In this document: positions 4,925-52,459 of the stretch, piece by piece
Position numbering within the stretch: position 1 is the stretch's first letter
Layout of the letters: the number at the start of each line of letters is the position of its first letter
Assembly: GCF_003334785.1 (NCBI RefSeq)
Contig: NZ_QOWV01000007.1
Source of the DNA: Escherichia coli
Lineage (GTDB): Bacteria > Pseudomonadota > Gammaproteobacteria > Enterobacterales > Enterobacteriaceae
Length of the DNA stretch: 64,000 nucleotides
Strand: one strand, 5' to 3'
Notes under the pieces: model-generated
The model's input: only the letters and a program-made list of their open reading frames with translations
The model's database searches: none
Told to the model about the DNA's origin: nothing
Position numbers and translations under genes: made by a program

Positions 4925-5084
4925 GGGTTATTCCTTATCTATCTAATAACGTTGAGTTTTCTGGAACCTGTCCCATTGAACTCTCGCCGGAAAGCTCAAT
5001 AAGACAGGTTCTACGTTTAGTTGCCGCGCTTTTATATGCGCTTGATTTACAACATCTTCTGGATAATTTTTACCAGAAAAATCA

Positions 5085-39913: not shown

Positions 39914-40092
39914 AATTGCCCCTTGCGTAAAATGTAAAAACCATAGCCATTGTACTGGTATGGGTTAAATTCATTAACATCTAAGCGCAGAAAATTAACT
40001 GCGGCAACTGCTTTTATTCCAGGTTCCCACTGATTTCGCAAAAAAAGCCCAACGTGACATGTTGGGCTGTAAATTGCGCATTGAGATCATTC

Positions 40093-40584
40093 TCAACGCA
40101 TTATTTTATCGCCGCGCGAAAGTCCGACCACACCAGAGCGAGCAACCTCCACAATTTTCGCCACATCGCGAATCGATGCTAAAAATGCATCAAGCTTACC
40201 GCTGGTGCCTGCTAATTGAACGGTATAAAGCGAGGGTGTGACATCGATAATTTGCCCACGGAATATTTCCGTATTACGTTTCACTTCGTCACGCCCGTAA
40301 CCGCTGGCCTGAATTTTCACCAGCATGATTTCCCGCTCAACATGCGCGCCCTGCCCCAACTCACTCACGCGCAAGACATCGACCAGTTTGTGTAATTGCT
40401 TTTCGATCTGCTCAAGTACTTTTTCATCGCCCACGGTCTGGATGGTCATACGCGATAATGTCGGATCGTCGGTTGGCGCAACGGTCAGGCTTTCAATGTT
40501 GTAGCCACGCTGGGAAAAAAGGCCAATCACGCGGGATAACGCGCCTGATTCATTTTCGAGTAAGACTGATAATATCCGGCGCAT
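40093..40584 (-). CDS. ilvH: acetolactate synthase III, small regulatory subunit
   Basis: Track ORF 173 aa; known N-terminus [19 protein letters not shown] (ACT domain) begins at ATG 40582-40584 (163 aa), 2 bp after the ilvI stop. Confidence 0.94.
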
Positions 40585-40586
40585 AA

Positions 40587-42311
40587 TCAGGTTCTCTCCG
40601 TTTTGCTTAACCACATTTCATCCATTCCGCCCCCGCGAATCTGCATCGGGTAGACGTGCTCGCTGCCATCGACGGTAACATCAACAAACACCAGGCGATT
40701 ATTGCGCACCTGTTCCAGCGCCTCGCTAAGTTTGCTTTCCAGCTCATGCGGATGAGAAATCTGGATCCCGACATGCCCATAGGCTTCCGCCAGACGGACG
40801 AAATCGGGTAGCGATTGCATATAAGATTGTGAATGACGGCCGGAATAGATCATGTCCTGCCACTGCTTCACCATCCCCAGATAGCGGTTATTGAGATTCA
40901 CCACCAGTACGGGCAACTCGTATTGCAACGCGGTAGACAGTTCCTGGATGTTCATCTGAATACTGCCGTCGCCAGTGACGCAAACCACGGTTTCTTCTGG
41001 CAACGCCATTTTGACGCCCAGTGCCGCAGGTAAACCAAAACCCATCGTGCCGAGGCCACCGGAATTGATCCAGCGACGCGGTTTGTCGAATGGATAATAA
41101 AGTGCAGCAAACATCTGGTGCTGCCCGACATCGGACGTCACGTAAGCGTCTCCCTTCGTCAACCGCCAAAGAGTCTCGATCACCGCCTGCGGTTTAATCT
41201 TTTCACTGTGAGTGTCATATTTCAGGCACTGACGAGCGCGCCACTGTTCAATTTGCTGCCACCAGTCGCGGATCTCATCCAGTGGTTGATGGGCGGATTC
41301 TTGCGACAAGAGTTCAAGCATTTGTTCGAGGACCTGGCGAGCATCCCCCACAATCGGGATATCCGCAGTCACGGTTTTAGAAATGGAAGTAGGATCAATA
41401 TCGATATGCAGAACAGTGGCATTTGGGCAGTACTTTGCCAGATTGTTCGTCGTTCGGTCATCAAATCGTACCCCGACGGCGAAAATCACATCCGCGTTAT
41501 GCATCGTCATATTGGCTTCGTAGGTACCGTGCATTCCCAGCATGCCCAGTGCCTGACGATGCGTTGCCGGAAACGCCCCCAGCCCCATCAATGAGCAAAC
41601 AACGGGCAGATTCAACGCCTCCACCGTTTCTTTCAACTGCTGATGGCAGCCCGCCGTGATTGCCCCACCGCCTACGTAGACAACCGGTTTTTTTGCCGCT
41701 ACCAGCGTTTGCAGAGCACGCTTAATTTGCCCTTTATGTCCGGTAGTAGTGGGATTGTAAGAACGCATACTGACCGACTCCGGCCAGACATAGGGTAATT
41801 TGTTCGCCGGATTAAGAATATCTTTCGGTAAATCAACGACTACTGGTCCTGGGCGACCACTTGCCGCCAGCCAGAAAGCCTTTTTCAGCACCTGCGGAAT
41901 GTCTTCCGTTTGCTTAACCAGAAAACTGTGTTTAACCACCGGTCGCGAAATCCCCACCATGTCGCACTCCTGAAAGGCATCGTAACCTATCAACGAGGTC
42001 GCTACCTGCCCGGAAAGGACAACTAATGGAATGGAATCCATATAAGCGGTGGCGATGCCAGTAATCGCATTGGTCGCCCCTGGACCCGACGTTACCAGCA
42101 CGACGCCGACTTCCCCGGTCGCGCGCGCCAGGCCATCGGCCATATGCACCGCCGCCTGCTCATGACGAACTAATACATGATCAATACCACCCACGGTATG
42201 CAATGCATCATAAATATCAAGGACTGCGCCTCCGGGATAACCGAATACTTGTTTAACGCCCTGATCGATAAGCGATCGGACGACCATCTCGGCTCCAGAC
42301 AACATCTCCAT
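40587..42311 (-). CDS. ilvI: acetolactate synthase III, large catalytic subunit
   Basis: Track ORF 604 aa; known N-terminus [28 protein letters not shown] begins at ATG 42309-42311 (574 aa); ThDP-binding GDGS motif. Confidence 0.94.
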
Positions 42312-42628
42312 GGCCTGCCTCACTGTTTGACGGAAAAAATGTGTAAAACACATTAACCGTCCGATCTTGCTTAAGCAATTGGCAGCCAGAGACATAAACA
42401 CGGGGTAATAAGAATAAACAGGAGGAAAGGTGAAAAGAAACGATAAAATCCTCCATTACAGAGGATTAAATTGATAATAAATCGGCTGAATCCCACAACT
42501 TACAGCAATTTCTCTATTTTTTTAATTAATCCTAAAATAGAGAGCCCACACATTCAGAATAAAATTCTACATTCAATAAAAAATGCAGAATAAACCAGAC
42601 ATTCATGTCTGACCTATTCTGCAATCAG

Positions 42629-43573
42629 TTAGCGTTTGCAAATTGAGACTAATTGCTCTTCCATCCACTGATGGCCTTTATCGCGCCCGGCAGCTTCATG
42701 CCAGGAGAGATAACAGGTTCTGCTGTTTTGTTTTAACGGCAGCGGTAATACCTGTAATTCTAAGGATTCAGCGAACTCTTCAGCCAGCCAACGCGGCGCA
42801 ATAGCGACCAAATGCGTTTGCGACACCACGCTAAGTACGCTCATCATTGCCATGCCCTGATACGCGATACTGGCTTGCTTATCTACCGTGTCATACCAAG
42901 GTTGACTAAATGACGCGAAACGATCGAGCGAAACCGCCGCATGTTGTTCGTTATAAACATCATGTTTCAGTAACGGGCCCTTAATTGTTGGATGATTTTT
43001 GCTGGCTACCAGCACCATTTCATCTTTAAATAATGGTACGCTGGTAAATTCAGGACGATGGAAGTCTTCATAACTAATCACAAACTCCGTTTCCTGATAA
43101 CGCAGCTGATGTTCAGTGTTCTGATTTAATGAAGACTTGAACATAACATGTATATTTGGCGCAATCTGCTCAATGTGATTATAAATCTGCGAGGTCAGAA
43201 TGCTGTCTAACGGGCTGCAAACACAAAGATGAAATACACGTTCACTGCTCGCGGGTTCAAAACCTGAACCAGGCAATTCATTTTGTACTAGTTGCAATGC
43301 CTGACGAACTGAACCAAAAAGTTGAAATGCGCGAGCAGTCGGTTGAATACCACGGCCATAACGAACAAAAAGCTCGTCATTAAACATCACCTTCAGGCGT
43401 GCAACAGCGTTACTGACCGCAGGTTGCGACATTCCCAGAACATGAGCGGCACGAGTAATGTTTTGCTCCTGCATCACGGCATCGAAAACGGTTAATAAGT
43501 TGAGATCGACCATGCGTAGCTGTGGTTTGCTTAACTCCGCCGTCTCTGGATGATCTGTTTGTACCTCTGGCAT
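42629..43573 (-). CDS. leuO: LysR-family transcriptional regulator LeuO
   Basis: Track ORF 373 aa extends into the AT-rich spacer; known N-terminus [33 protein letters not shown] begins at ATG 43571-43573 (314 aa). Confidence 0.92.
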
Positions 43574-44231
43574 ACTTAACTCCACTGTCACACTTAACTC
43601 CCTTTCCCTTATTGGAATGCAGAGAAATAATCCTGAAGAATATGATTTATCATGCATATAAAATAAGAAAAAGCAAAATGAGTAAAATTCGGAAAACATA
43701 AAGATACGGGTTCTGATAAAAACAGAATCCATTGCCGTGGAATGAGTCATTTACCACAGCATAATAATCCATAATGTTTTTGTTGCGAAAACAATCTAAT
43801 CATAACTACCGCGAATACTCAATCATCTACAAAATGGATTAAATGTGCTTATTTAATAATTAATTTATATATTTAATGCATTAATTCTTAACATTAATTG
43901 ATCAATAATATTCACCAAATCAATATCAAAAAAATCGCAAAAGATATAATTCAATACAAATCATCAGGATAGGTTTTGCAACGCGTGCATTTTGTCCCCT
44001 TTTTCCTCGTTGATTAGATGCAAAAATTTATGCTGAAATATGTCAACCGATGAAAAGCGTCGGTAGTTAAGCAGAAATTAATATCGCTTACTTTAACCAC
44101 CGCAGCACAATTAGCTAATTTTACGGATGCAGAACTCACGCTGGCGGGACGTTTTTATTGCGTCAGGGTTGACATCCGTTTTTGTATCCAGTAACTCTAA
44201 AAGCATATCGCATTCATCTGGAGCTGATTTA

Positions 44232-44318
44232 ATGACTCACATCGTTCGCTTTATCGGTCTACTACTACTAAACGCATCTTCTTTGCGCGGTAGACGAGTG
44301 AGCGGCATCCAGCATTAA
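44232..44318 (+). CDS. leuL: leu operon leader peptide
   Basis: 28 codons [28 protein letters not shown] with four consecutive CTA Leu codons at 44259-44270; sits inside a longer track ORF. Confidence 0.9.
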
Positions 44319-44339
44319 GCCAGCACGCAGTCAAACAAA

Positions 44340-44368
44340 AAACCCGCGCCATTGCGCGGGTTTTTTTA
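44340..44368 (+). terminator. leu attenuator (rho-independent terminator)
   Basis: AACCCGCGCC-ATTG-GCGCGGGTTTTTTT read directly between leuL and leuA. Confidence 0.9.
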
Positions 44369-44410
44369 TGCCCGAAGCGAGGCGCTCTAAAAGAGACAAG
44401 GACCCAAACC

Positions 44411-47073
<2,663 letters not shown>

Positions 47074-47075
47074 TC

Positions 47076-49092
<2,017 letters not shown>

Positions 49093-50346: not shown

Positions 50347-50573
50347 AAAAAAAACCAGCAGGTATAATCTGCTGGCGGGTGATTTTACACCAATACTCAG
50401 TCACACATGATGCAGGCAAGTCAACTTTCAGAATTGCGGTCATCCCACTGCATCAGTCCTTCAAGCATGGTTAATCGTTGTGGGACGCTTAACCAACGCA
50501 ACCAGCACAACTTCGCTGTCGCGGTAAAATAGTGCTGGTAAAACTGACGCATGGGGCACCCCCTTGCTTCATC
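50347..50573 (-). ncRNA. sgrS: SgrS small RNA (glucose-phosphate stress; dual-function sRNA/mRNA)
   Basis: Minus strand reads GATGAAGCAAGGGGGTGCCCCATGCGTCAG...AGTATTGGTGTAAAATCACCCGCCAGCAGATTATACCTGCTGGTTTTTTTT, matching the SgrS sequence as I recall it, including the seed region and 3' terminator; divergent from sgrR. Confidence 0.9.
50421..50552 (-). CDS. sgrT: SgrT, 43-aa peptide encoded within SgrS
   Basis: MRQFYQHYFTATAKLCWLRWLSVPQRLTMLEGLMQWDDRNSES is the C-terminal part of a 99-aa track ORF; the ATG at 50550-50552 lies inside the sgrS 5' region. Confidence 0.85.
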   Translation of the reverse strand: MRQFYQHYFTATAKLCWLRWLSVPQRLTMLEGLMQWDDRNSES

Positions 50574-52296: not shown

Positions 52297-52331
52297 TTGC
52301 TGGTTGATAACAAAATCACTACACTAACGCC

Positions 52332-52424
52332 GTTCTCAACGGGGTGCCACGCGTACGCGTGCGCTGAGAAAATACCCGTCGAACCTGATCCGGATAACGC
52401 CGGCGAAGGGATTTGAGGCTCCTT
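52332..52424 (+). promoter_or_regulatory. sroA: TPP riboswitch (thi box; sroA) in the thiBPQ leader
   Basis: GGGGTGCC...CTGAGA...AACCTGATCCGGATAACGCCGGCGAAGGGA read directly, carrying the conserved THI-element CTGAGA and ACCTGATC-GG-TAATGCC-GCG-AGGGA-like core; 35-130 bp upstream of thiB. Confidence 0.85.
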
Positions 52425-52459
52425 CTCAAGTCCTTTGCCACTCTTTTTTGAGGTGCAAA

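Follow-up and report, generated by a model that had tools for sequence, protein, structure and literature searches.

The leuL leader and transcription attenuator of the leuLABCD operon in a stretch of the Escherichia coli chromosome

RESULTS

The leu locus and its identification

The stretch of DNA analyzed here (the window, 64 kb in total) carries a short leader gene followed by leuA and leuB on its plus strand. The features from the putative promoter to the first structural genes are as follows.

44169-44174, plus strand: putative leu promoter -35 hexamer TTGACA, read from the sequence and conserved in relatives
44192-44197, plus strand: weak -10-like TAACTC, read from the sequence, after a 17-nt spacer following TTGACA
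44218-44367, plus strand: leu leader RNA (attenuator), as delimited by the match to Rfam family RF00512 (Leu_leader)
44220-44223, plus strand: Shine-Dalgarno GGAG, 8 nt 5' of the leuL ATG, read from the sequence; CTGGAGC is the majority form in the alignment of relatives
44232-44318, plus strand: leuL leader peptide open reading frame (ORF) with ATG at 44232, 28 sense codons, and TAA at 44316-44318, from translation and the RefSeq leuL annotation
44259-44270, plus strand: four tandem CTA (Leu) control codons, codons 10-13, read from the sequence
44337-44367, plus strand: intrinsic terminator, a 13-bp stem (44337-44349 with 44354-44366) and a T7 tract, from the sequence and minimum-free-energy (MFE) folding
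44411-45982, plus strand: leuA (2-isopropylmalate synthase), a 523-codon ORF and the first structural gene of the operon, from the ORF list and the RefSeq annotation of identical DNA
From 45979, plus strand: leuB, next after leuA, from the ORF list

A stretch of 321 bases around the leader was present in single copy, at 95 to 100% identity, in 5400 of 5426 complete E. coli genomes, and the matching E. coli DNA is labeled in RefSeq as 'leuL: leu operon leader peptide' and 'leuA: 2-isopropylmalate synthase'. The neighborhood in one identical RefSeq record (ilvI, the divergent leuO, leuL, leuA, and leuB) agreed with the ORFs of the window. Together, these matches and the agreement of the neighborhood indicated that the window is E. 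coli chromosome and that the element is the leuL attenuator itself.

Positions 40000-48000 were also scanned against Rfam with permissive settings, and the scan was repeated on the full window. Leu_leader (RF00512) was the sole strong match within 40000-48000, with a score of 145.8 bits (gathering score, 50; E = 5.6e-33) over positions 1-148 of the 148 positions of the model. The match lies directly upstream of a leucine biosynthesis operon that begins with leuA, which is the location that describes this family. Thr_leader and Phe_leader were rejected as candidates, their scores being far below threshold and explained by a common terminator shape. A second, sub-threshold Leu_leader match was found on the minus strand (44336-44390; 33.9 bits against the gathering score of 50) and arises because the terminator is symmetric (AAAAAACCCGCGC...GCGCGGGTTTTTTT, with an A tract upstream).

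Upstream of the leader, each of the 78 related loci has TTGAC[AT] at a constant position with respect to the Leu run. Neither the leu promoter nor the attenuator hairpin was called by a consensus promoter and terminator scan, a result that we judged to be uninformative rather than counter-evidence. The promoter was missed because its -10 is weak, and the likely reason that the terminator scanner failed is that the A:U pairs added to the stem consume the T run.

Several further observations concern the surroundings of the operon. The leuL-leuA junction was absent from 26 of the 5426 E. coli genomes, and 3 of the 5400 places at which it was found are on plasmid-classed records. The leuO-leuL intergenic region (43600-44100) has a GC content of 26 to 32%, against about 50 to 55% in the flanking genes, and the single promoter-like consensus site in 43700-44500 is on the minus strand at 43789-43761, directed towards leuO. 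Between ilvI and leuO, in another AT-rich intergenic region, a gene of 14 codons is listed in RefSeq as a 'hypothetical protein' (L081, 810-854; approximately 42429-42473 of the window, plus strand).

Other RNA families were matched elsewhere in the window. Downstream of the leu operon, Rfam placed the SgrS small RNA (sRNA) at 50347-50573 (minus strand, 227.1 bits) and a TPP riboswitch at 52330-52429 (plus strand, 65.9 bits). Four naRNA4 (RF02564) matches, each of 60.2 bits, were found in 61180-61500 on the plus strand; their spacing of exactly 85 bases suggests a tandem array of repeat units. Two more naRNA4 copies lie at 16315-16508 (minus strand). Matches above threshold were also obtained for tp2 (4927-5040, plus strand, 103.4 bits), STnc40 (16912-16981, minus strand, 84 bits), and PssrA (22628-22717, minus strand, 105.5 bits), the last being a family named for a plasmid-encoded Shigella sRNA and here chromosomal.

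Leader peptide and terminator

The leuL ORF is translatable, with a Shine-Dalgarno sequence, a start codon, and a stop codon, and contains tandem codons for the amino acid that the operon produces. A fifth Leu codon, TTG at codon 18, lies outside the CTA run and within RNA segment 2 (see below). Across the 43 long ORFs of the window, CTA accounted for 68 of 1911 Leu codons (3.6%); given this usage, the probability that four of four Leu codons would be CTA is about 1.6e-6. The 12-mer CTACTACTACTA occurred only once when both strands of the 64 kb were searched.

A Rho-independent terminator is positioned between the leader ORF and leuA. Its GC core consists of CCCGCGC (44343-44349), the loop CATT, and GCGCGGG (44354-44360), and A:U pairs lengthen the stem to 44337-44366, giving 13 bp and a folding energy of -19.7 kcal/mol. 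The T tract comprises seven T residues (44361-44367), with an A at 44368, and 43 nt separate its last T from the leuA ATG at 44411. The A tract 5' of the core was well conserved across the 77 relatives' sequences compared below.

An earlier note on this DNA had described a 28-codon leader with four consecutive rare CTA codons at 44259-44270, followed by a GC-rich hairpin with a U7 tract at 44340-44368, 43 bp before leuA. The length of the leader, the rarity of CTA, and the 43-bp distance were all borne out, and the position of the codon run was exact; the hairpin was placed correctly to within a base or two.

Alternative pairings of the leader RNA

Folding of the leader RNA brought in two strands and one further pairing.

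44257-44276, plus strand: segment 1, the 5' strand of the protector, from MFE folds and paired across 77 sequences
44284-44295, plus strand: segment 2, UGCGCGGUAGAC, the strand common to protector and antiterminator, from MFE folds
44285-44349, plus strand: antiterminator (preemptor), GCGCGG (44285-44290) with CCGCGC (44344-44349), enclosing a branched domain, from the MFE fold of the RNA downstream of a stalled ribosome

The leader folded at -55.7 kcal/mol, compared to -37.2 +/- 3.8 kcal/mol for dinucleotide shuffles (z = -4.9), and none of 200 shuffles was as good. The MFE structure of the full-length leader consisted of a large protector domain (44218-44330) and the terminator. Within the protector, the Leu codons and AACGCA paired with segment 2, through helices formed by GUCUACU (44257-44263) with GGUAGAC (44289-44295) and by CGCA (44273-44276) with UGCG (44284-44287); the 5' strand of the protector helix uses the first one and two-thirds CTA codons. 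The strand at 44285-44290 was common to the protector and the antiterminator, and the strand at 44344-44349 was common to the antiterminator and the terminator. Since each of these strands takes part in two pairings, the protector, antiterminator, and terminator are mutually exclusive. The antiterminator thus overlaps the 5' arm of the terminator, and its own 5' strand is held by the protector, which a stalled ribosome would disrupt.

The earlier note had proposed the classical layout of ribosome-mediated attenuation, to be checked by folding for alternative pairings, and considered that the proposal would fail if no mutually exclusive hairpins could be formed. Three such pairings were found and, with the Shine-Dalgarno sequence, the tandem control codons, and the terminator ahead of leuA also present, the proposed layout was supported.

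When the full-length leader was folded at equilibrium with a ribosome-sized block moved codon by codon, the terminator was obtained in every case, and this procedure cannot show a switch. Because the terminator forms at equilibrium despite the ribosome mask, the switch would work only kinetically, during transcription. The procedure was therefore replaced by a model in which the RNA was considered as made before the terminator 3' arm and only the part downstream of the ribosome was folded; the RNA was taken from 13 nt downstream of the A site, this footprint edge being an assumption. In the model without a ribosome, RNA ending at the terminator loop formed the protector domain and left the terminator 5' arm unpaired. 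When the A site was placed at any codon from 10 to 14, the predicted MFE structure (-19.9 kcal/mol) paired 44285-44290 with 44344-44349. With the ribosome at the stop codon, nothing remained in the model to hold the terminator 5' arm.

Conservation among Enterobacterales

Related loci were collected from one genome per species by searching with the first 300 residues of LeuA and not with the leader. The resulting 80 loci span Escherichia, Citrobacter, Salmonella, Klebsiella, Enterobacter, and Kosakonia to Pectobacterium, Dickeya, Brenneria, and Lonsdalea. All 79 loci with sufficient upstream sequence had a leader ORF that contains a run of CTA codons. The run was CTA x4 or CTA x3 in 75 of the 79 and ended with CTC or CTT CTC in the remaining 4; leaders with a three-codon run have two further Leu codons just upstream (LLGLLL). 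Leaders sampled from the relatives, out to the last four of these genera, matched RF00512 at 76.8 to 147.5 bits, above the gathering score of 50 in 20 of 20 cases.

This conservation bears on the idea that control of the operon involves no translating ribosome and depends instead on an RNA that binds a ligand or a tRNA (T-box or riboswitch) or on a leader-bound protein. There is precedent, since leuA genes of other phyla have T-box leaders (PMC2836559). However, the permissive Rfam scan of 40000-48000 yielded no T-box or riboswitch match, and it is a translatable ORF with its Shine-Dalgarno sequence and Leu run that is conserved in 79 of 79 relatives. We regard control of this kind as extremely improbable at this locus.

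In an alignment of 77 distinct leaders, the invariant stretches were CTACTACT, GCGCGGT, and CCCGCG...CGCGGGTTTTTTT. The first two were invariant in all 77 sequences, synonymous third positions included, although they are coding. C58 through T65 (numbering of the first row of the alignment), in the region of the CTA run, were likewise invariant. When the E. coli structure was imposed on the alignment, 80% of cells were paired, compared to 38 to 47% when the partners were slid by 1 to 3 columns. The inner helices of the protector (helices 5 and 6) were paired in 98.3% and 96.8% of cells, respectively, over the 77 sequences, and only 51 to 74% of cells were paired across species in the outer helices of this domain. 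The terminator had an invariant core and a stem paired in 95.3% of cells, and the antiterminator stem was paired in 100% of cells, without variation. Since the antiterminator and the terminator core are invariant, they offer no covariation evidence, and covariation was rejected as proof of either; their support comes from conservation at synonymous sites and from thermodynamics. Two-sided changes were seen only in the protector domain, where one pair changed from UA to CG in 20 sequences.

The terminator appeared in the full-length MFE structure of 77 of 77 relatives' leaders. In the ribosome model, with its assumed footprint, a ribosome on the Leu run gave an antiterminator with 5 to 7 pairs on the terminator 5' arm in every one of the 77. 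This includes three leaders (L065, L069, and L078) in which the run ends with CUU or CUC and which are thus without CUACUACUA, each with six predicted antiterminator pairs. Overall, this comparison of leaders from about 80 Enterobacterales species, found by way of leuA, adds no more than a tidy confirmation.

One genome contributed two leaders. On one scaffold (NZ_VYKJ01000001.1), Affinibrenneria salicis has two leuA copies (L075, 239968-242867; L076, 832262-835161), each with 88% identity to the query, that are oppositely oriented and separated by about 590 kb. The two leaders encode the same peptide, and a 209-base stretch upstream of leuA is identical between them.

Choice of the CTA codon

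The earlier note had also proposed that leuL codon choice be compared across relatives. In contrast to the CTA runs found in all 79 leaders, not one of the 1292 Leu codons counted in these relatives over the first 300 codons of leuA was CTA. This absence from leuA indicated that the choice of CTA is specific to the leader.

One explanation would be that the CTA run is kept only as the strand of an RNA helix (CUACU with GGUAG), so that tRNA rarity would be irrelevant and codon identity incidental. The helix of GUCUACU (44257-44263) with GGUAGAC (44289-44295) is indeed part of the MFE structure and is the one paired in 98.3% of cells, and a CUA repeat would permit slipped registers. Nevertheless, pairing in the MFE structure covers just the first CUA and extends by two bases into the second, the other CUA codons being in a loop, and the loop codons are still CTA in 73 of 77 leaders, with departures (to CTC or CTT) only at the last one or two codons. 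The absence of CTA from leuA of the same species also speaks against this explanation. Moreover, codon replacements have been reported to change regulation. According to PMC1183508, Carter et al. 1986 found that changing CUA to CUG in the S. typhimurium leader made it less sensitive to Leu starvation, and a change from CUA to UUA cut tRNA-dependent reporter induction from 11.5-fold to 2.7-fold (bioRxiv 10.1101/2021.05.27.446073); such swaps to CUG and UUA also change pairing, however, and do not fully separate the effects of structure from those of the codon. Overall, we consider it unlikely that the helix is the sole reason for the run.

As judged from the predicted pairing and the alignment, these results show that the CTA run is in part a helix strand, with RNA structure probably contributing to its retention without being the whole reason. 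The retention of CTA in unpaired codons, together with its absence from leuA, agrees with the view in the literature that sensitivity is tuned by the rare CUA codon, for which the leu operon has been termed a paradigmatic example (PMC1183508). Most likely, rare-codon and RNA-structure constraints act together.

DISCUSSION

Proposed mechanism of attenuation

The element is almost certainly leuL, the leader of the E. coli leuLABCD operon, together with its transcription attenuator. Transcription would start a few tens of bases 5' of leuL, and a ribosome would translate the 28-codon leader while RNA polymerase advances; both the start site and the kinetic coupling are taken by inference or from the literature. 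When charged tRNA-Leu (the minor reader of CUA) is plentiful, the ribosome would pass the four CUA codons and reach the stop codon. Segment 2 would then be covered by the ribosome or paired again, as the protector, with the Leu-codon region behind it. This would leave the terminator 5' arm free to form the 44337-44366 hairpin which, with the U7 tract, would stop transcription before leuA is reached. When charged tRNA-Leu is scarce, the ribosome would stall on the CUA run and cover segment 1; the freed segment 2 would pair with CCGCGC (44344-44349) once that strand has been made, and the resulting antiterminator would block the terminator and allow the polymerase to continue into leuABCD. In the complete absence of translation, the protector should form, and termination would be the default.

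The earlier note had also considered that its proposal would fail if leuA transcription did not respond to leucine, and published experiments bear on this response. A 2021 ribosome-profiling study (bioRxiv 10.1101/2021.05.27.446073) found that ribosomes pause at each of the four leuL CUA codons. In the same study, RNA fell 29-fold from leuL to leuA in control cells, compared to 4-fold when the CUA-reading tRNA was impaired by lack of m1G37. This regulated read-through from leuL to leuA in published RNA sequencing argues against the proposal that the hairpin is the constitutive terminator of a separate small transcript (from a small-protein gene or an sRNA) and that leuA has a promoter of its own. 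That proposal might draw on the fact that the terminator is always the most stable fold at equilibrium. It might also draw on the symmetry of the hairpin which, with the A tract upstream, could, judging from its sequence, stop antisense transcription as well. However, a consensus scan found no promoter-like site in the 43 nt that separate the T tract from leuA. Furthermore, in all 77 sequences the antiterminator strand is unchanged even at synonymous positions and is predicted to pair with the terminator arm, so that we give a separate transcript almost no credence.

A second role in trans might exist for the terminated leader RNA of about 160 nt or for the LeuL peptide of 28 residues, since the Sinorhizobium trp leader RNA and its peptide are reported to act in this way (PMC6614838 and PMC7298713); we consider this very unlikely. 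If it were true, the invariance of long leader stretches across genera would reflect more than attenuation. Nothing was found that points to such a role, and the invariant stretches are exactly those that attenuation requires. Indeed, there was no evidence of anything beyond classical attenuation by a ribosome translating leuL.

Relation to known systems

The region is the type member of RF00512, a curated and experimentally characterized family, and is thus already known. As presented in the papers that cite them, the published studies have already demonstrated the mechanism experimentally (Wessler & Calvo 1981; Carter et al. 1986; the 2021 ribosome profiling). Wessler & Calvo 1981 is cited for the E. 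coli mechanism by PMC1183508 and bioRxiv 10.1101/2021.05.27.446073, which also cite Carter et al. 1986 and Bartkus et al. 1991. These two papers deal with this very leader, its four CUA codons, and the experiments done on it. The value of the present analysis is therefore as a control and not as a discovery: a genuine regulatory element was recognized from raw sequence and placed to the base.

Compared to the enterobacterial Leu_leader family RF00512 (E. coli leuL; Wessler & Calvo 1981), the element has the same peptide, four CUA codons, and terminator, and no difference was found. The leu attenuator of Salmonella typhimurium (Gemmill, Keller, Calvo; Carter et al. 1986) shares its layout with the E. 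coli element, as well as the strands of the protector, antiterminator, and terminator; its leader normally has three CUA codons (PMC1183508), compared to four in the E. coli leuL gene described here. The leader of Salmonella enterica subsp. arizonae (L059) scored 143.9 bits against RF00512 and has CTA x4, but its peptide, MSHIVRFTGLLLLNAFSVRGRRVGGIQH, differs from that of E. coli at several residues.

A more distant likeness is to E. coli trpL, the paradigm of ribosome-mediated attenuation, in which a leader peptide with tandem control codons is combined with overlapping pairings 1:2, 2:3, and 3:4. The logic is the same, with an intrinsic terminator ahead of the first structural gene, whereas the sequence and RNA family are unrelated and trpL has two Trp codons in place of the four Leu codons of leuL. 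In addition, control of leu relies on a rare synonymous codon, an option that is closed to Trp, which has a single codon. The leuL leader is among the founding examples both of ribosome-mediated transcription attenuation and of the regulatory use of rare codons.
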